From assembly GCA_947366545.1 (NCBI GenBank), contig CANBAL010000005.1, forward strand, positions 16,621-80,620: DNA of 64,000 nucleotides, in the 5' to 3' direction. The notes under the pieces are model-generated. The model worked only from the letters and a program-made list of their open reading frames with translations. It had not been told where the DNA came from and did no database searches. This document shows positions 6,853-18,992 of the stretch, piece by piece; positions within the stretch are counted from its first letter, which is position 1; each line of letters starts with the position of its first letter. Position numbers and translations under genes: made by a program. The DNA comes from an uncultured Clostridia bacterium. GTDB taxonomy: Bacteria; Bacillota; Clostridia; Christensenellales; UBA1242.

Positions 6853-6880
6853 AAAGACTGCCACTAAGGCAGTCTTTTTT
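6851..6880. terminator. Bidirectional intrinsic terminator
   Basis: AAAAAGACTGCC-ACTAA-GGCAGTCTTTTT. Confidence 0.8.
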
Positions 6881-7122
6881 TAGCAACAATTTTTTGCTAA
6901 CAGCATGCCAGCGAGGAAATACACCGCTGAGCATGGGATTTGAATATTGAGGTTTCCGCAATTTCCGCAAGTGGAGTTGCAAGGTGGGAAGGAAATAGGT
7001 GGAAATGGCATTGGTGGGAAAGGCGGAAAGAAAGGTGGGTTGTCACAACCACAGTGAGGGGGATTATGACAGCCACGAAGGTCGACAAAACAACCTTGTC
7101 GATAATGACAGTTATTACACAT
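6880..7122 (-). CDS. Small Cys/Pro-rich protein, possible spore coat/exosporium component
   Basis: SD AAGGAGG before ATG 7122; CHNPPHCGC, PPFFPPFPPMPFPP, CNSTCGNCG; function inferred from composition only. Confidence 0.6.
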   Translation of the reverse strand: MCNNCHYRQGCFVDLRGCHNPPHCGCDNPPFFPPFPPMPFPPISFPPCNSTCGNCGNLNIQIPCSAVYFLAGMLLAKNCC

Positions 7123-7171
7123 ATATGCCTCCTTTAGCATTTATTGTGGCTCCAGTTAATAAATTAGTAAT

Positions 7172-8173: not shown

Positions 8174-8911
8174 CAGGGCAATACTTGTCATTACAACATC
8201 AAGTTTTAGCATTTGACTGCCATAGTTTATAAGGTAGCCAAGTCCGGCTTTGCTTGAAAGGTATTCACCCATCACCGTGCCAACCCATGCCATTCCAACA
8301 TTGATTTTCAGTACTGAAATGAACTCGGGCAGGGCACTTGGCAGCACTAATTTTGTAAGTATCTGCCATTTGTTTGCTCGCATTGATTTCATGAGAAGCA
8401 TTTTATCTTGGTCACATGAAATGAATGCATTAAGCATGGAAATTATGGTTATGACAAGGCATATTAGTACGCACATGACAACAGTGGCCGAAGTGCCTGA
8501 GCCTACCCAGAAGATAATCATAGGGCCGAGTGCTATTTTTGGCAAACTGTTTAGTATGATAAGGTAGGGCTCCATAATACGCCGAAGTTTTTCACTCCAC
8601 CAAAGCATGATTGCAATGGCGACGCCAAGCACTATTGCGATGACGAAACCGATGATTGTTTCATACAAAGAGGTCCAGATATGAAGGAAAAGGTTTCCAT
8701 TCACGGCAAGGTCAGCAAGGGTTGTAGCAATTCTGGAAGGGCTTGAGAAGAAGAATGGGTCTATCGCGCCAGTAGCGGCAAGAAGTTCCCATAATCCTAA
8801 GAAAAGCACGAAAAGTGTTATTTGCCAAAAAATGACGATAATTTTATCTTTTCTCAGCCTTTTTAAGTATTTTTCATGGGCTTTTGATAGATTGTGTTGT
8901 TTCTTTTTCAT
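8108..8911 (-). CDS. ABC transporter permease (NitT/TauT/SsuC type)
   Basis: FFSSPS, LNSLPKIALGP, EAA-like loop, VMGEYLSSKAGLGYLI. Confidence 0.9.
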   Translation of the reverse strand: MKKKQHNLSKAHEKYLKRLRKDKIIVIFWQITLFVLFLGLWELLAATGAIDPFFFSSPSRIATTLADLAVNGNLFLHIWTSLYETIIGFVIAIVLGVAIAIMLWWSEKLRRIMEPYLIILNSLPKIALGPMIIFWVGSGTSATVVMCVLICLVITIISMLNAFISCDQDKMLLMKSMRANKWQILTKLVLPSALPEFISVLKINVGMAWVGTVMGEYLSSKAGLGYLINYGSQMLKLDVVMTSIALLCLLAAGMYGLVSLLERRQQK

Positions 8912-9665
8912 TGGTAAGATTTCTCCATATCATTTCAAAATGCTTGCCAAAATCTTTATCCTCGCGTTTTGCAAGCGGGGTGGAGCCGGAAAGGTCTAAA
9001 TCAACCACCTCTTTCACCGTGGCTGGACGGTAACTTAAAATGACAATTCTGTCTGATAAAGATATCGCTTCCGAGATGTCGTGTGTGACTAATAGTGCGG
9101 TTTTCTTTTCTTTCTTAATGATGTCGTATACATCATCGCAAACCTTTAATCTAGTCTGAAAGTCCAGTGCTGAAAACGGCTCGTCAAGAAGTAGTAAATT
9201 TGGCTCAAGAACGAGGGTGCGAATAAGTGCCACCCTTTGTCTCATACCTCCGCTTAGCGTGCGAGGTTTTTTATTTTTGAAGCCGTAGAGGTCGTATTTT
9301 TTTAAGAGTTCTTCTGCAAGGGCAATTTTTTTAGGGTCTTTATTTTTCTTTTGTACTTCCAGCCCAAGCATGATGTTTTGCCAGATGGTACGCCATTCAA
9401 AAAGATGATCGCGTTGGAACATATAGCCTATACGAGGGTCATTTTTTGCAATAGGTTTTCCCTGCAAATTTATCTGTCCGCTCGTTGCTTCAAGTAGTCC
9501 TGCGGTAAGGGACAGGATTGTTGTTTTTCCACAACCGCTTGGTCCAACTATGGAGGCAAATTGCAATTCATCTATTTCAAATGAAACATTATTAAGGGCA
9601 TGGATTTCATGCTCTTTTGTCTGATAAAAGTAGGTTACATCTTTAAACTCTAAAAATTTTTCCAT
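8874..9665 (-). CDS. ABC transporter ATP-binding protein (NitT/TauT type)
   Basis: GPSGCGKT, LSGGMRQR, LLLLDEPFSALD. Confidence 0.93.
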   Translation of the reverse strand: MEKFLEFKDVTYFYQTKEHEIHALNNVSFEIDELQFASIVGPSGCGKTTILSLTAGLLEATSGQINLQGKPIAKNDPRIGYMFQRDHLFEWRTIWQNIMLGLEVQKKNKDPKKIALAEELLKKYDLYGFKNKKPRTLSGGMRQRVALIRTLVLEPNLLLLDEPFSALDFQTRLKVCDDVYDIIKKEKKTALLVTHDISEAISLSDRIVILSYRPATVKEVVDLDLSGSTPLAKREDKDFGKHFEMIWRNLTNEKETTQSIKSP

Positions 9666-9745
9666 TTGAATTACCTCTACATTACCATTCTATAAATTTA
9701 TTTTTCTTTTGTTACACTCTCGGCAAAAATTTTTGGCACAGATTA

Positions 9746-9774
9746 TTGCAAAGGTAAAAAAGCGGGTTTACAAT
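9746..9774 (+). promoter_or_regulatory. Sigma-A-type promoter for the phage-derived module
   Basis: TTGCAA-17 bp-TACAAT, then SD AAGGAGG (9794-9800) and GTG start 9807. Confidence 0.6.
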
Positions 9775-9806
9775 TTGGGTACAAGCCGGCGGAAAGGAGG
9801 GCAGAA

Positions 9807-10106
9807 GTGGATGAAGAAGAGGAAGAGATAAAGAAAGCATTACTAAAAAAAGCCCTAGGGTACATGGCGGACGAGGTGGTTGAAGAATATGTGATGGGGG
9901 AGGACGGAGAGGAAAAACTTGCGAAGCGCAAGGTGACAAAAAAGCATGTCAGTCCTGACATTTCTGCAATTCGGGTCTTCCTAGAACGATATGACACCGA
10001 CCTGTCCAGCCAGATAAAAAATATGACGGATGAAGAACTTTATGCAGAAAAGGCAAAACTCATCAAACTATTAAAGGAGGAATATGATGGAGATTTATCA
10101 GTGTAA
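9807..10106 (+). CDS. Phage small-terminase-like protein (C-terminal part only)
   Basis: ALLKKALGY...KVTKKHVSPDISA resembles Firmicutes phage proteins that precede terL; position at start of head module. Confidence 0.6.
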   Translation: MDEEEEEIKKALLKKALGYMADEVVEEYVMGEDGEEKLAKRKVTKKHVSPDISAIRVFLERYDTDLSSQIKNMTDEELYAEKAKLIKLLKEEYDGDLSV

Positions 10107-10308
10107 ACAAAAGGTAAAGTGCGATTTTGCAGGTTGCAAAAATGTTGCAGATTACTCACTCGTCAAAAGCGGACTTCTAAGGCGAGATATCTGCTTATGC
10201 GAAGAGTGCATGCAGGAAATATATGAATGCATTTCAAAAGTTAGGGTGCCTAAGGCACTTGAAAGTCCATTTAAATTAAATAAGAGGTTGAAGAAAGATG
10301 AAAAGTAA
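10084..10308 (+). CDS. Small Cys-rich (putative Zn-binding) protein
   Basis: CDFAGC...CLCEEC; overlaps both neighbours; SD AAGGAGG. Confidence 0.6.
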   Translation: MMEIYQCKQKVKCDFAGCKNVADYSLVKSGLLRRDICLCEECMQEIYECISKVRVPKALESPFKLNKRLKKDEK

Positions 10309-12151
10309 AGAAAACAAATTAGTAGAAGAAGTGATAGAGGATTTTAAAGCAAGGTCACTTCAAAGAAAACCATTTGAAATTTCGTGGCAGATAAATATGA
10401 ATTTCCTTATGGGGAATCAGTATTGCAGTATCGGTTATGGCGGCGAAATTGAAGAAAGCGATAAAAGTTATTTTTGGCAGGAGCGTGAGGTGTTTAATCA
10501 TATTGCACCTATATACGATGTAAGATGTGCCAAACTTTCAAAAGCCAGACCACACTTTGTGGTAGTGCCTGCAACCAATGATGAGAGGGACAAGCAGGCG
10601 TCCAAGGTGTCTAAGAAGATACTTGACTCAGTGCAATATAAACTTGGCATGGAGAACTTAATTGAGCAGGCTATCAAGTGGAGCGAGGTTTGCGGAAGTG
10701 TTTTCTACAAAGTGACATGGAATGGCGAAAGGGGACAACTTATCGCAAAAGATGATGACGGACATGATATCCGTAGTGGAGAGGTTGAGGTTGAGGTAGT
10801 CAGTCCTTTTGAAATCTATCCCGATTCATCCACTCGTGAAAGTATCGAGGAGTGCGAAAGTATCATACACGCAAGAGTGCTTTCAGTAGAACAGATAAAA
10901 CAAATGTATGGCATAGAGGTGGCTGGCAAAACAATTAACTGTTACAGCCTTGACAATGTGTCCTCAGGCCTTGGTGGACTTGGTTATACCGCCACCGCCA
11001 CAAAACTTATAGAAGGTGCGCGTGCAAATAGTGGGCTTGTCCTTGAAAAGTATGTAAGGCCTAATGCGGAGTATCCAGAAGGCAGACTTATAATAGTCGC
11101 AGGTGAAAAACTTGTATATGACGGAAATTTACCATACCTATGCGGTGAAGATAAGACGAGAGATTTCCCTTTTGTAAGACAGATAAGTTTGGAAAAGACG
11201 GGATGTTTTTGGGGTGGCAGTGTAATAGAAAGATTGATACCTGTACAAAGGGCATATAACGCTGTCAAGAACAGAAAGCATGAGTTTATAAACCGCCTTA
11301 CCCTTGGTGTGCTTAGCGTTGAGGACGGGTCGGTTGACCTTGATAATCTTGAAGATGAAGGTCTTTGCCCAGGAAAGGTGCTTGTATATAGGCAGGGGGC
11401 AAATGCACCAAGGTATTTAAATGGTGAGGCTTTGCCTTCTGGTTTTGCCGATGAGGAGGAAAAACTTCTTGATGAATTCAATAGGGTGAGTGGGGTAAGT
11501 GACACCCTTGGCACTGACTATATGAATTCTAATATGAGTGGTACCGCACTTGAACTTATGATAGGACAGGATGAAGTGAGATTAAATACCACTTCACATA
11601 GTATACAGGCGGCGGCCTTAAATGTAATGAAAAAGGTGCTTAGACTATATAAGCAGTACGCCCTTTTCCCTCGCCTTGCAAGAATAATTGGTGAGAATGG
11701 TGAGATAGAGGCATTCTATTTCTCCTCAAATGACATATCAAGTGACGATGTCATAATTGACGCTCAGGATGATTTGGGAGATAGCATCACCACCAAACGC
11801 GAAATGGTATTTAATCTACTTAACGCGGGAGTGCTTTATGATGATGAGGGGAAACTCACAAACAGGATGAAGGGAAAAGTGTTGGAGATGCTTGGACTTG
11901 GGGCTTGGCAAAGCGCCCAAGATATACAAGAACTACACATAAAGAAAGCGGGAAATGAGAATTTGAAAATGCTTTCTGGGATTAATGTAACTGTCAGCGA
12001 GATAGATGAGGATGATTTACATATCTCAGAGCATATTGCGTTCATGCTGGGCAGCGATTATGAAAACGCAAAACAAAAAAATCCTAAACTTGAAGGAGTA
12101 TTTTTAAATCATATTAAAGAACATAAAAAAGCAAAAAAATCGGAGGAGTAG
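10298..12151 (+). CDS. Phage portal protein (P22-like)
   Basis: 617 aa; FLMGNQY, VFNHIAPI, VVPATNDERDKQAS, VVSPFEIYPD, IERLIPVQRAYN, FNRVSGVSD; position before scaffold and capsid. Confidence 0.8.
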   Translation: MKSKENKLVEEVIEDFKARSLQRKPFEISWQINMNFLMGNQYCSIGYGGEIEESDKSYFWQEREVFNHIAPIYDVRCAKLSKARPHFVVVPATNDERDKQASKVSKKILDSVQYKLGMENLIEQAIKWSEVCGSVFYKVTWNGERGQLIAKDDDGHDIRSGEVEVEVVSPFEIYPDSSTRESIEECESIIHARVLSVEQIKQMYGIEVAGKTINCYSLDNVSSGLGGLGYTATATKLIEGARANSGLVLEKYVRPNAEYPEGRLIIVAGEKLVYDGNLPYLCGEDKTRDFPFVRQISLEKTGCFWGGSVIERLIPVQRAYNAVKNRKHEFINRLTLGVLSVEDGSVDLDNLEDEGLCPGKVLVYRQGANAPRYLNGEALPSGFADEEEKLLDEFNRVSGVSDTLGTDYMNSNMSGTALELMIGQDEVRLNTTSHSIQAAALNVMKKVLRLYKQYALFPRLARIIGENGEIEAFYFSSNDISSDDVIIDAQDDLGDSITTKREMVFNLLNAGVLYDDEGKLTNRMKGKVLEMLGLGAWQSAQDIQELHIKKAGNENLKMLSGINVTVSEIDEDDLHISEHIAFMLGSDYENAKQKNPKLEGVFLNHIKEHKKAKKSEE

Positions 12152-12154
12152 AAT

Positions 12155-12766
12155 ATGGAAGAAATCAGAGAACAACCAGTTAAGGAACCGACAGATGTTT
12201 CGATTGAAACGAGTGAGACGAGAGTTGTGAGTGAAACTGGCTCTCAAAATGACACGGCTCGACAAGCACAGCCCGAGCAAGGTGAATATGGCAAGTTTAA
12301 ATCATTGGAGGCATTACTTTCTGCCTACACAAATTTAGAGGCCGAGTTTACCAAAAAGTGTCAAAGGCTTAGTCAACTTGAGAAAGAAAAAACAGGGGAA
12401 GGTGATATTGATGAAAAACTTTCCCAGTTCCTTTCAAAAAATGAGGAGGCTGGCTCTTATGCTGAGGAACTTAAAGAAATTGTAAGCACCGAGGCAGAAA
12501 CAGGGGAGTTCGATTCTGCACTTGCGAAGATAGTACTAAATCGCGTAGCGCAGAACAAAGTGGACGACCCTATGGTAAATCGTTACATACTTTCTAGTGA
12601 CGAATTGAAAAACAAGGTAATTGAAAATTATCTTAACGCTCTTAAGGAGCAAAAACCACCAGTTGTAATTTCTTCTCAAAAGGGTGAGAGGGTGTCAAGC
12701 ACTATGCCTGACACTCCAACCTCACTATCTGAGGCAAAAAAAGTGGTGGAAAAAATGTTTAGTTAA
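12155..12766 (+). CDS. Capsid scaffolding protein
   Basis: Acidic disordered N-terminus then GKFKSLEALLSAYTNLE (podovirus scaffold-type motif); between portal and capsid. Confidence 0.75.
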   Translation: MEEIREQPVKEPTDVSIETSETRVVSETGSQNDTARQAQPEQGEYGKFKSLEALLSAYTNLEAEFTKKCQRLSQLEKEKTGEGDIDEKLSQFLSKNEEAGSYAEELKEIVSTEAETGEFDSALAKIVLNRVAQNKVDDPMVNRYILSSDELKNKVIENYLNALKEQKPPVVISSQKGERVSSTMPDTPTSLSEAKKVVEKMFS

Positions 12767-12780
12767 AAAAGGAGAAAATT

Positions 12781-13980
12781 ATGGTAACATTACAAACAGC
12801 CGAAAACGCTTTGAAGTCTGTTTATCTTGGAGTGGTTGCTGACCAAATTAATATTTCAACAAGCCCACTTTTTGCAAAGATTAAACGCTCATCTAAAGAC
12901 ATATACGGCAAAGAAATTGTTAAAGCCGCTCCATTTGGGGTAAATGGCGGTTTCGGTGCTGGCGGGGAAACAGGACCTCTTCCAGTTGCTGGAAATAAAA
13001 ATTATGCTCAATTTAGGGCAACACTTAAAAACCTTTATGGTCAATTTGAAATCAGTGATAAGGCAGTACGCGCATCTGCAAGCAATGTAGGCGCATTTGT
13101 AAATCTTCTTGCTGACGAAATGGAAACACTTGTAAAATCTTGCAGTTTCAACCTTAACAGAATGCTTTATGGTGCAGGAGATGGCCTCGTAGCCACTGTA
13201 AGCAGCGTTGACGCCACAAATAAAGTGGTTACATGTGACAGCGTAAGAAATATAGTTGAAGGAATGATGCTTGATGTTTATGGCACTACTGGAAAAACAA
13301 ATACCGCTCCAGTAAAGGTGGTTGCAGTAGATAGAGCGTCAAATAAATTTAAATTTGAGGGCACTCATACTATCGCAGCCGCAAACAAATTATATGTTCA
13401 AGGCTCAAAAGATCAAGAACTTACCGGTATTGAAGCACTTTTCACAGGAGACACACTCTATGGTCTTAGCAAGAGCGATTATTACTGGCTTAAATCTTTC
13501 CAAGATAAAACAGAAGGCGAAATATCTGATATAAGGATTCAGACTGCTATTGACTTCCTTGAAGAAAATGCTGACTCAAAAATCAACTTCATCGCTACTT
13601 CAAGAAAGATAAGAAGAGCATATCAAGAGTATCTTAACATTTATAGAAAGAATGTAGATATTGTAGATCTTGGAAATGGTATTAAAACTATCACACATAA
13701 TGGCATCCCAGTATACGCTGATAGATTTGTAAAAGAAGGGGATATGTATTTACTTAATACAGACGACTTCACATTGTATGAACTTGGCGACTGGAGCTGG
13801 ATAGAGGACGAGGCTGGCAGAGTTATAAGACAAAACGCAGGCTATCCTACATATAGTGCAACCCTTGTAAAATATGGCGAACTCATTTGTGACAAACCAT
13901 ATGGACAAGGCAAGATATCAAACATATCTGCATCTGTAAACGATCCATACAAGACATATATACCAGATACTAACGCATAA
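12781..13980 (+). CDS. Phage major capsid protein
   Basis: 399 aa; TLKNLYGQFEISDKAVRAS, LNRMLYGAGDG, ELTGIEAL, HNGIPVYADRF..GDMYLLN; strong SD; followed by terminator. Confidence 0.85.
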   Translation: MVTLQTAENALKSVYLGVVADQINISTSPLFAKIKRSSKDIYGKEIVKAAPFGVNGGFGAGGETGPLPVAGNKNYAQFRATLKNLYGQFEISDKAVRASASNVGAFVNLLADEMETLVKSCSFNLNRMLYGAGDGLVATVSSVDATNKVVTCDSVRNIVEGMMLDVYGTTGKTNTAPVKVVAVDRASNKFKFEGTHTIAAANKLYVQGSKDQELTGIEALFTGDTLYGLSKSDYYWLKSFQDKTEGEISDIRIQTAIDFLEENADSKINFIATSRKIRRAYQEYLNIYRKNVDIVDLGNGIKTITHNGIPVYADRFVKEGDMYLLNTDDFTLYELGDWSWIEDEAGRVIRQNAGYPTYSATLVKYGELICDKPYGQGKISNISASVNDPYKTYIPDTNA

Positions 13981-14005
13981 AGCAAAAGCGAAGGCTTTTG
14001 CTTTT
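13979..14005 (+). terminator. Intrinsic terminator after the capsid gene
   Basis: AAAGCAAAAGC-GAAG-GCTTTTGCTTT. Confidence 0.8.
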
Positions 14006-14020
14006 ATTAAGGGAGGAAAA

Positions 14021-14338
14021 ATGAAGGATTATACTATAATCGAGCACGACCCACTATTTATTACAGATAGGCTGAGGGAAATAGATAAAACATATTTTGT
14101 ACTTTACAATTTAAAGCTTAAAAGGTATGAAGTGCATTCCAGCGGGCAGGCTGGCGGCAGTTATTGTTTCAGTTTGCCCTATTCCTCCCTTGATGAGAGA
14201 GCGGTGACCCAGTGCCTTCGCACAAGGCGGGAGAATATTGATAAAGTCATTAAAGAAATGGATGACGAAAATGAAAAATTACAAAAGCGTCTTGTGCGAA
14301 AGGCGATAGAAAAATATGTGGAGGTGAACATATGTTAG
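14021..14338 (+). CDS. Phage-module hypothetical protein
   Basis: SD GGGAGG; 105 aa; within the virion gene run. Confidence 0.65.
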   Translation: MKDYTIIEHDPLFITDRLREIDKTYFVLYNLKLKRYEVHSSGQAGGSYCFSLPYSSLDERAVTQCLRTRRENIDKVIKEMDDENEKLQKRLVRKAIEKYVEVNIC

Positions 14339-14895
14339 CATATGAAGTGATAAAAGCGGCGTGTCAGTTTTCTGATAATGACACTCTTGCCGATAAGATT
14401 TTGTCGGCGTCAGACTTCGACACTGATTTTACAGATGAGGAAAAGAAAACGCTTACAAGATATTTGGAGTGTCTAAACTATGTACAAGAAGAGGTAGCAA
14501 GCGAGTTTAAACCTCTTAAAGCCACCGAGACTTTCAAAACCGAAAATTTCAAAATAAATTTCAATGCTTTTAAAAAGATCCCGCTTCAAATACTTTCTGT
14601 CAAAGATAATAGAGGCGGAGGGGTAAAGTTTAAGGTATTTCCAACCTATCTTATGGCTTTTGCAAGTGAGGTTGAGGTCACTTATGGTGCTACTCCAATA
14701 AAACTTGATTATGACAGCCAAATAGAGGTGGATTTGCCGCAAAGAGTGCTTGGCTATGGCGTGGCACGGGAGTACTACCTAAGACAGGGGCTTACCGAAG
14801 ACGCTGAGATTTATGAAAACAGATTTAAGGGGAGTTTAAAACTCATTTTAAGAAAAAAGGCCGGCACCACTTTGCCTAGGAGGAGGTGGCTGTAA
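14332..14895 (+). CDS. Putative head-tail adaptor / tail tubular protein A-like
   Basis: 187 aa helix-beta-helix layout ending LGYGVAREYYL...AEIYENRF; position after capsid. Confidence 0.6.
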   Translation: MLAYEVIKAACQFSDNDTLADKILSASDFDTDFTDEEKKTLTRYLECLNYVQEEVASEFKPLKATETFKTENFKINFNAFKKIPLQILSVKDNRGGGVKFKVFPTYLMAFASEVEVTYGATPIKLDYDSQIEVDLPQRVLGYGVAREYYLRQGLTEDAEIYENRFKGSLKLILRKKAGTTLPRRRWL

Positions 14896-16367
14896 TGTTT
14901 AATGAAAATAAACTTAAAGTCACGAAAAAAGATAAAAAAATATTCAAGTTTGATTTTTTTAATAAGTGTCCTGCAAGTAGTAAAAATGATGAGGAAATGG
15001 CATATAGCGAGCCAAGGCTTTGTTACAACTTTAAGGTGACAAAAAGCGGACTAGAGAACGGTTATGGCGTGCGGGATTTACAAATGCCACTGTCCACCAC
15101 CAATCTTGAAACTGAGGCGGTGATTCCAATAAACGGAAACGAAGTAAGAAGAATGTGGAGTTTTACTTGGGAGGATAACAACGCAAATGTCCTGAAATAT
15201 TACCTGTTTTACTTTAACGAAAATCATCAAATAAATTATGAGAACCTATTTTGGTCAAGACCGATAAGAATTTCCTTTAACACTGAGTACACATCCACGC
15301 CGGTTGGTCTTAGTTATAGAATAAATGGTTATGACTATATGATATTTTCCACGCAGGACGGAGATGTTTATGTATTTGGTGCGGGCTATGATAAATATCT
15401 GGAAGGTGCACCAAAACTTATTTCCTGCTGTACCCATGATGATAGGCTTTATGCCCTTACAAGCAAGGCAAGGCATAGCCTTGTATATTCCACAAACCTT
15501 AATATTATGGAGTGGAAGGACGATACTACCCAGCACCTTGAGTTTAGTGATGAGCGTGGAAACCTTACCAAAGTAATGTCATTTAATGACTATCTTTATG
15601 TATTCCGCGAGTTCGGTATAACAAGGCTGTCAACCTATTCGACCTCTGGTGAATTTAGTATCCGCCACATCTTCCAGTCGACAAGTTATATTGAAGCCGG
15701 CTCTATTGCATCAAACGGAGAGGATGTATACTTCCTCACTACCGAAGGCTTTTACAGTTTCGATGGAAACTCTGTAAAAGAGGTGGAACTTGACTGTTTT
15801 TCGCAGATAGAAGATTTGTCAAAGTGTAGTGCAGAATGTTTTGAAAATAAATATTATCTTGCCTGCCGTATGAAGTTTGATGAGCGAAGTGAGGGATGTG
15901 AAAGCGGCGAGTATGTAAATAACGCCGTGCTTATCTATGACACTAAAAAAAGGAAGGTGGAGATTTTGCGAGGGATTGATGTGAACCAACTGCTTGCTTT
16001 AAACAATCCACTTAAAAGTAAACTTGTAATGTGCTTTAACGGCGATAAGGTGGGTCATGTGGGGGAACTTACTGATGGCGGCAAGTGCTTTAATCAAAGC
16101 CAGCATAAGGTATGGCAAAATTCTTTCTCAGACTTCGGTCTTGGAGAAGGTGTGAAAAAGGTAGAGCATTTTACGATAAAAACCTCGGCACCTTGCAAAG
16201 TGACATTAAAAAGTGAAAGAGAGACAAGGCAGTATTGCCTTAAAGGCGGGGAAGAAGTGAGGTTAATAAAAAGCGGACTTGTAGGAAGTCGTGTGCAAGT
16301 GACTATCGAAAGTGATAGTGACAAGATAAAAATTTCATCTTTTAAATTAATTTTGAGTGTGCAATGA
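14895..16367 (+). CDS. Putative tail nozzle / head stabilisation protein (P22 gp10 / tubular protein B-like beta-propeller)
   Basis: TAATG coupling; beta-rich blades such as HDDRLYA, FNDYLYVFREFGI, GSIASNGEDVYFLTTEGFYSFDG, AVLIYD. Confidence 0.65.
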   Translation: MFNENKLKVTKKDKKIFKFDFFNKCPASSKNDEEMAYSEPRLCYNFKVTKSGLENGYGVRDLQMPLSTTNLETEAVIPINGNEVRRMWSFTWEDNNANVLKYYLFYFNENHQINYENLFWSRPIRISFNTEYTSTPVGLSYRINGYDYMIFSTQDGDVYVFGAGYDKYLEGAPKLISCCTHDDRLYALTSKARHSLVYSTNLNIMEWKDDTTQHLEFSDERGNLTKVMSFNDYLYVFREFGITRLSTYSTSGEFSIRHIFQSTSYIEAGSIASNGEDVYFLTTEGFYSFDGNSVKEVELDCFSQIEDLSKCSAECFENKYYLACRMKFDERSEGCESGEYVNNAVLIYDTKKRKVEILRGIDVNQLLALNNPLKSKLVMCFNGDKVGHVGELTDGGKCFNQSQHKVWQNSFSDFGLGEGVKKVEHFTIKTSAPCKVTLKSERETRQYCLKGGEEVRLIKSGLVGSRVQVTIESDSDKIKISSFKLILSVQ

Positions 16368-16484
16368 TAGTTTTCAATATGAATCACATAAAGTTCGTCA
16401 ATAGAAAAAAGTTAATTGAAGAGGAGAAACTTATGGAAGATATATTCAAAAAATCGGAGAAAACACAACTGGCGAAAAAGCAAA

Positions 16485-16718
16485 ATGGGAATTTGGAATG
16501 AAATCATAAGTGTGGTTGTAAGCAATGGAATATTTGCCACACTTTTTGTATTCTTGTTTTTTTATCAATTAAAAGATAGTTCAAAACGCGAAAAGGCCTA
16601 TCAGGAAACGATAGAAAACCTTACCGAGCATCTGCAGATAATCGAAGATGTAAGGGAGGAGGTAACCGAACTTAAACAACATATACTTAAGGAGGAAGAA
16701 AGTGAAAGAGAAGATTAA
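16485..16718 (+). CDS. BhlA/UviB-like holin
   Basis: SNGIFATLFVFLFFYQLKDSSKREKAYQETIENL; single TM followed by coiled coil. Confidence 0.8.
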   Translation: MGIWNEIISVVVSNGIFATLFVFLFFYQLKDSSKREKAYQETIENLTEHLQIIEDVREEVTELKQHILKEEESERED

Positions 16719-16941
16719 ATCTTATGGCTTTTGGACGGCACTGGCAGGTGCCATGGTAGTGCTTGTGGACGCACTTGGCGATTTGTTTGGCTTTAGTGTC
16801 AGCGATGAGATAGTGTCAGGTGTTGTAATGGCGGTTGCAGGTGTGCTTGTGGTGCTTGGTGTAGTCACCATGCCAAAAGGCGAAAAAAAACCACCTAGTG
16901 AAGAAACTGATAAAGATGACGAAGAAAAAGAGGGAGAGTAA
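16702..16941 (+). CDS. Second holin-like two-TM protein
   Basis: KIKSYGFWTALAG, two TMs, VLVVLGVVTMP, charged tail; GTG start with SD AAGGAGG. Confidence 0.7.
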   Translation: MKEKIKSYGFWTALAGAMVVLVDALGDLFGFSVSDEIVSGVVMAVAGVLVVLGVVTMPKGEKKPPSEETDKDDEEKEGE

Positions 16942-16955: not shown

Positions 16956-18992
16956 TTACTGTACAACTCCAAGCCCCGTGTAGAACTTATAGTTTGTTGT
17001 ATAGTCACCGATAACTTTAAGCACCTCAAAGTTGATTTCAAGGTAGTCGCAATCCTCTTCTGGTGTAAAGGCTTTAGGGTTTAGCCTGCCATAACTATAG
17101 TAGTTGTTTGCCGCCTCGTCTGATGCTTCCACAAGTTCGTAATAGTTTTTGGCAATGCTTGTTCCTGTAAGAGGGTAAGGCTTGCTTCGTGATACTGTGC
17201 CATCAAATTTCATGTCAGGGTGGTGTAGTAGTCCGCCAGCAAGTTCGGTATTAAATGGATTGATTGTGTAACCTTTTTTGTATTGCTGGTCAATTCCAAA
17301 AAGCATCATTGTGCTGCCTTCCATGCCATAATCATGTGGGCCGTCTTTCACTCTTATCGTATTTGTGGCAACTGTTTTTCGCTCTCCGCCTTTGTTGTAT
17401 ACATTTATATACACCTTGATGTCGATTGCAGAGTTTGTCACCTTGCTGTCGCCGTCATTTCCAGCATCATATTTAAAGTGGAGTGAAATGTTGTCAACAG
17501 TGAAAGCCTCTCTAAACATAAGCACCACGCTTTGGTATTCCATAGCCTCAATGTTTTTGAAAGGGTCGTCACTTGCCACCATAAAGTTTGTGCCGTAATA
17601 GTCTTTAATAGCCGATGCAGGGAACCTGTCAGAAATGCTAGGGCTTCCACCTTCCTCATTTCCGATATGGACATACTCAGTTACGGCTTTCACAATATTA
17701 GAAACAACATTTGTATAATCACGCCTCACTTCTACTGGCGCTTTTTCGTTTATTTTAACAATGTCTTGTACAGTCTCACCAGCATCATTTTTATACTCAT
17801 AGATTGCATATTCATTTTGTTTTACACTATCGGCACCTATTGCGTCACTACCAATTACATTATCAAGAATATATTTAACAAGTTTTGCCTGTTTTGCTTC
17901 AGAGAAACCTACATAGGTCCCGATTTTGTTAAATATATTTTTGATATATGCAAGTGCTTCGTCTACACTTATTGGTGCATCGTTGCCCTGTTTTATTTTT
18001 ACATCTGGCGTTCCATCAGTTAATAATGTTACTTGCACCTGCCCAGGGTTCATTTCAAGGGTAATGCAATAAATCACATATTCAAGTGCTTTCACATAGT
18101 CGCTATAACCTTTGGTGTAAAAACCTGTTGTTTCATCTTTTTCAGCCTGTTGCTGTGTGGTGCCAAGAAAAGCCTCTTGATATTTTTCAGCAATATTAGG
18201 GTCACCTAAATTGTAATAATTGTCTCCTACATTATCAAAATAATTATTGCTCTTATTTTCATTTGTAAAATAGTATGAATTATAAACAATATTAGGGTTT
18301 GTAGGGGAAATAATAGCACTTTTATTATTTGCTGAAAAAGATGTGTTATAGATAAATGACTCAGGTTCTTTAAGACTTCCAAAAGTCCAGTTCCAAGACT
18401 TTGATAAATCTACCATCATATTTACATATGGTCTAAAACTTGTTTCTTTAAATTTTTTGTCTGATATTTCTGGTGTCGTTACATCACCATTTATGTCTTC
18501 TATATATTTAACAATATATTCATCTTGTTGATATAAATTATATCTCACACTATCATAAAAATACTTTTTTCCAGTGGTGGTGTAATATGTATAATTTGCT
18601 GAAGGGGGAGTATATTGATCTTCAGTCCCTTCTATTAATTGGGGCTTACCTTCTATATATTCATCAGTTGATGTAGTACCATATGTACGAGTTAAACCAT
18701 TTAAAATCTGCCAAGCAAATTGCCCATAATATTCTTGATTACCAGTACCGACTGTACCTTCACCATCATAATCATAATTTTCAGGGCGGTATAACACCTT
18801 TACGCCATGTAATGGTACAGGCATATTGTTTTTAAGTTGTTCTTGTAACTGCTCATATGTAATTTCGCCGCGGTTATATTTGTCAATAAGTTCGTCATGA
18901 TAGTTACTGTCATTGCCAAAGCATCCTACGCTTAAAAGGGCGAAGGAGGCGACAAATATAAAACTTATAATCCTAGCAAAGACTTTTTTCAT
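16956..18992 (-). CDS. Hypothetical lipoprotein
   Basis: Signal peptide MKKVFAR...LLSVGC lipobox; 678 aa. Confidence 0.8.
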   Translation of the reverse strand: MKKVFARIISFIFVASFALLSVGCFGNDSNYHDELIDKYNRGEITYEQLQEQLKNNMPVPLHGVKVLYRPENYDYDGEGTVGTGNQEYYGQFAWQILNGLTRTYGTTSTDEYIEGKPQLIEGTEDQYTPPSANYTYYTTTGKKYFYDSVRYNLYQQDEYIVKYIEDINGDVTTPEISDKKFKETSFRPYVNMMVDLSKSWNWTFGSLKEPESFIYNTSFSANNKSAIISPTNPNIVYNSYYFTNENKSNNYFDNVGDNYYNLGDPNIAEKYQEAFLGTTQQQAEKDETTGFYTKGYSDYVKALEYVIYCITLEMNPGQVQVTLLTDGTPDVKIKQGNDAPISVDEALAYIKNIFNKIGTYVGFSEAKQAKLVKYILDNVIGSDAIGADSVKQNEYAIYEYKNDAGETVQDIVKINEKAPVEVRRDYTNVVSNIVKAVTEYVHIGNEEGGSPSISDRFPASAIKDYYGTNFMVASDDPFKNIEAMEYQSVVLMFREAFTVDNISLHFKYDAGNDGDSKVTNSAIDIKVYINVYNKGGERKTVATNTIRVKDGPHDYGMEGSTMMLFGIDQQYKKGYTINPFNTELAGGLLHHPDMKFDGTVSRSKPYPLTGTSIAKNYYELVEASDEAANNYYSYGRLNPKAFTPEEDCDYLEINFEVLKVIGDYTTNYKFYTGLGVVQ

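Follow-up and report, generated by a model that had tools for sequence, protein, structure and literature searches.

In a 64,000-nt stretch of DNA (the window) from an uncultured bacterium of the Clostridia, contig CANBAL010000005.1, we examined a tight plus-strand gene row (positions 9807-16941, Locus I) that begins with a 99-residue open reading frame (ORF99), followed by genes for a small zinc-finger-like protein (Zn74), portal, scaffold and capsid proteins, three neck or tail proteins and two holin-like proteins. The genome behind the window comprises 0.95 Mb in 17 contigs and is 97% complete. The results suggest, with a probability that we put at roughly 0.65, that ORF99 is a short-type small terminase (TerS) of a chromosomally fixed, podovirus-derived and probably gene transfer agent (GTA)-like system whose packaging operon was split. 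The gene of the large terminase (TerL) is intact and is located on another contig.

When compared with protein families, ORF99 matched phrog_309 'terminase small subunit' (E 1.5e-5, profile positions 195-243 of 319) and gave no Pfam family and no Pfam helix-turn-helix (HTH) domain. An hhalign comparison of the short-form profile with a 158-residue, HTH-bearing phage TerS gave 97.2% and E 3.8e-11, with residues 1-61 of ORF99 placed on residues 58-119 of the phage protein; the start of ORF99 thus corresponds to the end of the HTH in the long form. A preliminary description of this DNA, made from the letters alone, had taken ORF99 for a TerS-like protein that lacks the HTH. The alignment agrees with both points, and a protein unrelated to small terminases, which that description had also considered, is not what these matches indicate. 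Searches of the PDB by sequence, either with the ORF99 profile or with the HTH-bearing TerS, found no relative.

The AlphaFold2 monomer model of ORF99, built on an alignment of 98 sequences, had a predicted local distance difference test (pLDDT) score of 91.3 and consists of a helix, a long beta-hairpin and three helices. A single helix precedes the hairpin, which bears the invariant basic residues K40, K42, K45 and K46. The model matched four BFVD entries at E ≤ 0.001, two of them 'Terminase small subunit' models and two lactococcal proteins of the L13 type; the E values of the TerS-labelled models ranged from 3.1e-5 to 2.7e-3. In a search independent of Foldseek among 48,161 solved chains, both top matches were the oligomerisation domain of SF6 (SPP1-like) TerS (3zqp, Z 4.1, root-mean-square deviation 6.9, 62 aligned residues; 3zqm, Z 3.9, deviation 4.7, 52 aligned), and the next match had a Z of 2.9. 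This likeness of the predicted structure is weak yet appears specific. Judged by homology, ORF99 is a genuine TerS core without the HTH.

Of 25 loci of the genus, 24 have ORF99 and Zn74 upstream of the portal gene, and the remaining one is truncated at a contig end. The 26 close homologues of ORF99 have 92-107 residues, and the ratio of nonsynonymous to synonymous substitution rates (dN/dS), calculated against the nearest relatives with unsaturated dS, was 0.033-0.056 for ORF99 and 0.050-0.062 for Zn74. Since both small genes are kept in this way with low dN/dS, they are real beyond chance.

To place the short form, a profile of 20 ORF99 homologues was run against 1.84 billion proteins. At E ≤ 1e-3 it matched 1014 representative clusters, of which 447 reached E ≤ 1e-10. 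The characteristic motif was located in 121 of the best 150 of the 1014 representatives: within the first 25 residues in 90, at residues 25-44 in 22, and at residue 45 or later in nine. The N-terminal extensions of these last 31 proteins, inspected by eye and not subjected to an HTH search, are mostly K-rich low-complexity tails with no obvious HTH. Long K/A-rich tails resembling histone H1 take the place of the HTH in homologues P0030, P0047, P0054, P0087 and P0113, and the homologue of one genome (G116; locus L182, 2480-3223) has a K/E/A/G-rich C-terminal tail instead. Tails of this kind could bind DNA non-specifically. A TerS-portal fusion considered for G116 (a 769-residue frame) reflects nothing but the absence of stops over a long stretch of GC-rich DNA, where separate genes follow one another in the order terL, the ORF99-like gene with its long tail, a 68-residue zinc protein and portal.

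In IMG/VR the ORF99 profile detected 28 loci, 17 of them with long forms (144-190 residues) and 11 with short forms (91-124 residues). The long forms have an extension of 60-84 residues before ENALLKKALGY and end in a FWLKNR.P..WRD tail. When six of them were scanned (four of the 17 from IMG/VR and two from related genomes), a Pfam HTH scored above the curated cut-off in two, more weakly in three and was absent in one. With one long form, 447 deposited phage records were matched, and the annotation of many of them is 'terminase small subunit'. The phrog_309-type TerS of Streptococcus, Lactococcus, Staphylococcus and Vibrio phages and of CUS-3 shares a homologous core with ORF99 (ENALLKKALGY ... 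PD..A), but it carries an N-terminal HTH of about 55-70 residues, precedes terL and has the WRD-type tail, whereas ORF99 has an MTDEEL..EK..L helix at this position. Thus, the earlier statement that phage homologues bear an HTH and precede terL is true for that branch (17 of the 28 IMG/VR loci, the 447 phage records, and loci L034 and L035). A weak phrog_309 match on contig C10, considered as a detached TerS HTH, was by its ORF translations an ordinary Xre-type HTH gene beside a tRNA-modification gene.

Long forms also occur among the relatives. In one family (f4) the ORF99 profile was found in 10 of 14 genomes, and eight of the 10 matches were weak (E 1e-11 to 1e-7; frames of 154-231 residues), fitting the long HTH form. 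The one f4 genome inspected, G027 (L034, G027:C6 7011-16374), has two tRNA-Ser genes followed by a 150-residue HTH-TerS, terL, portal, scaffold, capsid and the three conserved genes. The long form probably stands ahead of terL in an otherwise colinear row in most of f4, and at least in G027. Given this colinear row with a long TerS, both TerS types serve homologous elements.

The short form is not restricted to chromosomal loci. Seven virulent lactococcal phages carry an HTH-less gene of 98-113 residues directly 3' of terL: 62403, c2 (gene l13) and 5205F (Ceduovirus), GE1 (Chertseyvirus), Q54 and Nocturne116 (Questintvirus) and LG75P3 (unassigned). Phage c2 is, we assume, a cos phage. The seven-phage L13 profile aligned with the ORF99 profile over 69 columns (hhalign 87%, E 4e-6), with the same AL..A.G, hairpin and PD..A landmarks and only about 25% identity, and the best BFVD match of the ORF99 model was the 99-residue 'structural protein 5' of Lactococcus phage 62403 (Foldseek E 1.3e-5). 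The carriers are virulent siphoviruses, some records of which show an HNH endonuclease gene before terL. A tblastn search of 50,697 deposited phage records with ORF99 gave nothing at E ≤ 1e-3 and two weak partial matches at E ≤ 10, because the E/K-rich query was probably masked. L13 of c2 has been named a TerS on the basis of structure prediction, with a predicted decamer 'typical of these proteins' (PMC12474359, Viruses 2025). ORF99 resembles L13 in length, in lacking the HTH and, in the relatives, in its place behind terL; in the present genome it is on a separate contig from terL.

The preliminary description had proposed that loss of the pac-recognition domain would fit sequence-independent packaging, a GTA hallmark, if terL is elsewhere. 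Such a loss as a GTA edit was not upheld, as three genera of virulent lactococcal phages carry an HTH-less homologue of about 98-113 residues. Its own reservation, that active phages might also encode the HTH-less form, was borne out in part, by distant homologues. Since the form occurs in virulent phages, a missing HTH alone is no proof of sequence-independent or random packaging. Judging from the homologues, an HTH-less TerS of about 100 residues behind terL is a phage arrangement found in active phages, and the short form was probably inherited from a phage ancestor and is not a product of domestication. Programs that search for GTAs should not rely on an HTH-less TerS, because the same short form stands behind terL in the virulent lactococcal phages. 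The comparison also ties the predicted TerS of the c2 type to a family of more than 1000 representative clusters, which makes the short TerS type easier to study.

The possibility exists that ORF99 is a small portal- or neck-associated virion protein that shares a helix-hairpin-helix core with TerS, and that TerL initiates packaging alone or with a factor such as Zn74. The gene always adjoins the portal or Zn74 gene, GenBank record MF443120 labels the lactococcal homologue 'structural protein 5', and the Z of the best solved TerS is only 4.1. However, the homology to HTH-bearing, terL-preceding TerS is strong in both the hhalign and phrog_309 comparisons, the BFVD matches are TerS models, and a decamer is predicted for L13 of c2 in PMC12474359. 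The label, moreover, belongs to a numbered series (2-5) in MF443120, with no proteomics basis shown in that record. We therefore consider a virion-protein role of ORF99 unlikely.

A whole-genome search recovered a single terL (C7:34107-35540), encoding 477 residues with the Terminase_6N (ATPase) and Terminase_6C (nuclease) domains. It belongs to a second gene group, Locus II, which comprises a gene for a 167-residue sigma-70-region-4 protein, a divergent gene for a 254-residue signal-peptide/membrane protein (p254), terL, and a downstream gene for a 753-residue GLUG-motif protein; glycosyltransferase and NMT1/ValRS genes flank the group. Within the flanks covered, all 30 such loci of the genus had p254 and terL, 29 had the sigma-like gene and 26 the GLUG gene. 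Of 60 other genomes of the genus, 57 have a terL without internal stops (63-81% identity), and in an alignment of 35 TerL sequences Walker A (GGNR.GK), Walker B (WFDEE), TMTP and the nuclease Asp and His residues are all invariant. Compared with the ORF99-abutting terL of linked loci, the gene shows 57-65% identity. The distance from terL to the portal gene within single contigs was 6.5 kb in one genome of the genus and 32 to about 150 kb in five others. Two possibilities had been left by the preliminary description, namely a GTA with terL elsewhere or a particle that packages no DNA. As an intact and conserved terL with invariant catalytic motifs lies on another contig, the branch with terL elsewhere holds, and a particle without DNA is unlikely. 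The sigma-like gene is also present upstream of terL in the unsplit relatives L033, L036, L040, L122, L134 and L141 and may therefore regulate the system.

To see where terL lies in relatives, we took the 80 best of the 336 loci that matched in species-representative genomes. terL abutted ORF99 in 12, terL and ORF99 were separated by a GLUG gene in seven, and only the GLUG gene was seen upstream in two. No terL was present within at least 3 kb upstream in 47 loci, and the flanks were too short in 12. The order was sigma-like gene ... terL-ORF99-Zn74-portal in G040, terL-ORF99-portal in G031 and G034, and HTH-TerS (150 or 177 residues)-terL-portal in G027 and G033. In IMG/VR, each of the 11 loci with a short form had terL upstream and the portal gene downstream. 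The remark that no gap or relic remained 'where terL normally sits', between ORF99 and portal, therefore referred to the wrong place: wherever the two genes are linked, terL lies upstream of ORF99 (12 abutting, seven via GLUG and all 11 in IMG/VR), and Zn74 thus fills no former terL slot. In 42 of the 47 split loci the same divergent ATP-binding cassette (ABC)-ATPase gene lies directly upstream of ORF99, as it does in the window.

A portal tree was calculated by a quick IQ-TREE run for 74 of the 80 loci, six with incomplete portals being dropped. The abutting loci were basal, followed by eight of the nine intermediate loci, and the split loci formed a clade of 52 rows (43 split, eight with short flanks and one with an unrelated GLUG match) with a Shimodaira-Hasegawa-like approximate likelihood ratio test value of 99. 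A second, small split group of three rows lay among the intermediates. What happened in this genome is thus no domain loss but a chromosomal split between [sigma, p254, terL, GLUG] and [ORF99 ... holins], which this clade of uncultured Clostridia shares. The earlier claim that the packaging module had been edited is supported in part: the edit is an operon split, and the loss of a domain and the terL slot before the portal are not upheld. The correction is therefore twofold: the short TerS belongs behind terL and occurs in active phages, and what was edited here is the operon.

The most economical reading of these arrangements has three steps. terL and ORF99 would originally have been adjacent; a fibre-like GLUG gene would then have been inserted between them; and finally one main rearrangement would have cut between GLUG and ORF99 and moved the head row beside the ABC operon. 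A stepwise break-up of a packaging operon is documented in this way, from terL abutting ORF99 through insertion of the fibre gene to two loci tens of kb apart, the motor gene being intact throughout.

Evidence for domestication came from the distribution and the selection of the genes. All 24 other genomes of the genus had the portal gene (55-75% identity), as did seven of 16 other sampled families, one of the family matches being weak. Among 301 genomes of the order, 139 had a match to the ORF99 profile (121 of 261 high-quality genomes; 71 of 150 genera), nearly always in single copy; it was near-universal in some families (13/13, 12/14 and 6/6) and not found in others (0/14 in four). dN/dS was 0.033-0.091 for the portal gene and 0.056-0.135 for the capsid gene, and it ranged over 0.03-0.13 across the four genes. 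The structural genes are fixed in the chromosome, vertically inherited and under purifying selection. As in GTAs, the genes are dispersed over separate loci, and in both neighbourhoods inspected, Locus I and Locus II, there are no replication, integration or lysogeny genes. The results place a large uncultured group of small-genome gut Clostridia among the likely producers of podovirus-type GTA-like particles.

It could also be that Locus I is the head module of a mobile element, such as a prophage or a capsid-forming satellite, with the unlinked terL stemming from another element or a helper. IMG/VR lists three contigs with the module as 'provirus', and two of these contigs also have serine recombinases and other phage genes close by; f4 relatives have the canonical order HTH-TerS, terL, portal beside tRNA genes. 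Yet no integrase, replication or lysogeny gene was seen in or beside the window cluster in the ORF list or the Pfam and PHROG scans, and no tyrosine integrase was found on the three 'provirus' contigs. The same chromosomal junction recurs in the 42 split loci, which belong to different species, ORF99 is single-copy and near-universal within families, and terL keeps a neighbourhood of its own and its identity to the ORF99-abutting genes. The IMG/VR neighbours are siphovirus tail or defence genes, unrelated to a podovirus-type module. Thus, it is very unlikely that the module belongs to a mobile element. Unrelated mobile or defence DNA nearby probably explains why a virus caller flagged these bacterial contigs. 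On two of them, L190 (G355) and L191 (G356), the module lies beside such DNA; one has two large serine recombinases and a siphovirus tail module, and the other has a WYL protein, a C5 methylase, an Mrr/ResIII enzyme and a serine recombinase.

The least probable explanation, which we regard as highly improbable, is a particle that is empty of DNA or has a different function, such as a lysis or bacteriocin-like device or a protein shell, with ORF99 and terL kept for something other than packaging or slowly decaying. The operon is closed by two holin-like genes, one of the BhlA 'bacteriocin/holin' family, and its tail genes are poorly defined, but the ATPase and nuclease motifs are invariant in the 35 TerL sequences, terL is uninterrupted nearly throughout the genus, ORF99, portal and capsid genes show the low dN/dS given above, and we know of no role of a packaging motor besides DNA translocation.

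If ORF99 is a short-type TerS of a split GTA-like system, the following mechanism can be proposed from the gene content and the models. The short type would consist of the oligomerisation core only (helix, long basic beta-hairpin and C-terminal helices) and would never have had an N-terminal HTH. Locus I would be transcribed from its own promoter beside the ABC-transporter operon and would be co-expressed with Locus II on the other contig. We infer that rings of ORF99 would bring the unlinked TerL to the procapsid portal and regulate it there, and that DNA would be packaged by headful. Initiation would probably not be tied to one site, because ORF99 has no specific DNA-reading domain.

Several observations weigh against this interpretation. 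The GTA-like particle system is predicted from its genes, a listing of sequencing runs gave nine with DNA and none with RNA, and the portal tree was rooted only at the midpoint. Foldseek gave nothing at E ≤ 0.001 when the ORF99 model was compared with the PDB, the structural similarity of ORF99 to solved TerS is weak (Z about 4), and MF443120 describes the lactococcal homologue as structural. ORF99 is acidic overall (isoelectric point 4.7), so any DNA contact would depend on the conserved basic hairpin. HTH-less homologues are present in virulent phages, including Nocturne116, which its abstract describes as a cos phage. No endolysin gene follows the holin pair, genome-wide searches for an endolysin and a clear tail set not having been made. 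Finally, the likeness to the closest published system, discussed below, was judged by architecture only.

The closest published system is the GTA of Faecalibacterium prausnitzii (FpGTA; Borodovich et al., Nat Commun 2026, PMC12946183), so that a podovirus-type GTA-like system has already been published for Faecalibacterium. In that paper, FpGTA has a TerS without a DNA-binding domain, is encoded in two loci and forms podovirus-like, tail-less-looking particles of about 40 nm with about 9 kb of host DNA. Like Locus I and Locus II, it is a chromosomal podovirus-like set of head and neck genes in gut Clostridia, split between two loci that lie 125 kb from each other in one strain, with fibre or receptor-binding protein genes in the second, and without replication or integration genes. 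The two systems differ in that the candidate TerS gene of FpGTA I lies upstream of terL, both within the head operon, whereas in the family of ORF99 terL is normally the preceding gene and, in the present genome, now belongs to the fibre locus. The holin genes belong to the head locus here but, with an endolysin gene, to locus II of FpGTA, and the accessible text does not mention a Zn74 gene. In our search with the major capsid protein, none of the best 120 of 5628 rows was named Faecalibacterium. The same study reports GTA-like packaging events in metagenome-assembled genomes of Christensenellaceae, with the genes left unnamed in the accessible part (PMC12946183). The present loci probably name the gene set behind those events; the link to this organism is putative.

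The first small terminase described for a GTA was gp1 of RcGTA, and the loss of its N-terminal DNA-binding domain was proposed as the defining trait of a GTA-type TerS (Sherlock et al., J Virol 2019, PMC6854486). It has been demonstrated that gp1 binds DNA non-specifically and binds TerL (PMC6854486). Like ORF99, gp1 starts at the oligomerisation region and has no N-terminal DNA-binding domain; unlike ORF99 in its family, it precedes terL. This likeness was judged by architecture. Judging from the lactococcal homologues, the domain-loss trait is not exclusive to GTAs.

Zn74 has 21 homologues of 71-74 residues with 55-90% identity. The preliminary description had noted a CxxxxC...CxCxxC pattern, which is present as C13-x4-C18 ... 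C37-x-C39-x2-C42; across 17 homologues the only invariant cysteines are C13, C18, C39 and C42. The AlphaFold2 model (pLDDT 82) has three strands and a helix with a disordered tail. The protein has an isoelectric point of 8.9 and a conserved basic tail (...SPFKLNKRLKKDEK), the last 24 residues having a net charge of +6. Zn74 matched no Pfam or PHROG family and had only unnamed neighbours in the Atlas; in structural searches its BFVD matches were uncharacterised phage proteins at E ≥ 3e-3, and the best VIA Z was 3.6. Its gene is present in 44 of the 47 split, six of the nine intermediate and one of the 12 abutting loci. As the carriers are related lineages, this association with the split may be simple ancestry. 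We considered whether Zn74 might be a new accessory packaging subunit, fixed as terL became unlinked, which would provide the contact with DNA or portal that the acidic, HTH-less ORF99 lacks; this appears distinctly unlikely. If true, the packaging initiator would be a three-part machine (TerS core, zinc protein and unlinked TerL) that has been described for no phage or GTA.

The coordinates of the features are collected below. In agreement with the preliminary description, the ORF99 product starts with a GTG codon (9807) behind a strong Shine-Dalgarno sequence, located 5 nt past AAAGGAGGG at 9793-9801; its N-terminus is MDEEEEEIKKALLKKALGYMADE, and the motif ALLKKALGY...KKHVSPD is present. 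The overlaps read in that description are also correct: ORF99 and Zn74 share 23 nt, and the end of Zn74 overlaps the portal gene (ATG at 10298) by 11 nt. Zn74 starts with the ATG at 10084 behind AAGGAGG and has 74 residues, or 73 from the second ATG (10087), which is the start in most homologues.

Features of Locus I in the 64,000-nt window, and of Locus II outside it
Feature	Position	Strand	Basis or remarks
Promoter-like site TTGCAA-17-TACAAT	9746..9774	+	consensus scan, 9/12 matches; consensus match only
ORF99, HTH-less TerS core, 99 residues	9807..10106	+	GTG start behind AAAGGAGGG; phrog_309, hhalign, AlphaFold2, BFVD, dN/dS
Zn74, four-cysteine zinc-finger-like protein with basic C-terminal tail	10084..10308	+	homologues, invariant Cys, AlphaFold2, dN/dS
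Portal, P22-like, 617 residues	10298..12151	+	PF16510 P22_portal E 1.5e-18; phrog_156 E 7e-32
Probable scaffolding protein, 203 residues	12155..12766	+	position between portal and capsid; weak family matches; kept in relatives
Major capsid protein, 399 residues	12781..13980	+	phrog_14242 'major head protein' E 4.9e-51
Three conserved genes (105, 187 and 493 residues), probably neck or short-tail parts by position	14021..16367	+	
Two overlapping holin-like genes (100 and 79 residues)	16416..16941	+	Pfam/PHROG
Locus II: sigma-like gene, p254, terL, GLUG	G000:C7:32861-37998 (L002 8755-13892)		outside the window

Upstream of ORF99 there are 141 nt and then the divergent ABC-transporter ATPase gene (8874-9665, minus strand), and the holin-like pair is followed by a convergent gene for a 678-residue lipoprotein-like product (16956-18992, minus strand). 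Pfam and PHROG scans found no terL between ORF99 and portal or anywhere else in the window cluster. The capsid protein had 5628 homologues at E ≤ 1e-10 among 8000 scored. The 493-residue product matches phrog_3287 'virion structural protein' (E 4.6e-5), the 105- and 187-residue products had no significant Pfam or PHROG match, and the three genes are colinear in most of the 80 related loci. The 100-residue holin-like product matches PF10960 Holin_BhlA (E 1.7e-18), and the 79-residue product matches PF04531 Phage_holin_1 (E 2.3e-5) and phrog_297 (E 1.8e-9).

The upstream regions of 24 loci of the genus (window 9715-9806) were compared by eye, without counting. They share a conserved TTTTTG(G/T/A)CA box 7 nt ahead of a promoter-like site, TTGaaa-17-TAtAAT, and a related TTTGTC box lies about 45 nt ahead of terL. 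A shared regulon was sought with the pattern TTTTG[GTA]CA-N7-TTG; it gave nine matches genome-wide against 2.25 in shuffled sequences and none at terL, so that no regulon is claimed. A sigma-54 reading of the TGGCAC...TTGC box was also rejected, as its spacing fails to fit by one position and GAC or GTC is found in many relatives.

Outside the gene row, a minus-strand ORF of 86 residues (window 6880-7140) with no family match is rich in Cys and Pro (CNNC, CGC, repeated PPF/PPxP and CGNCGN). A small peptide that is secreted or associated with spores is conceivable, but the frame may also not be a gene.

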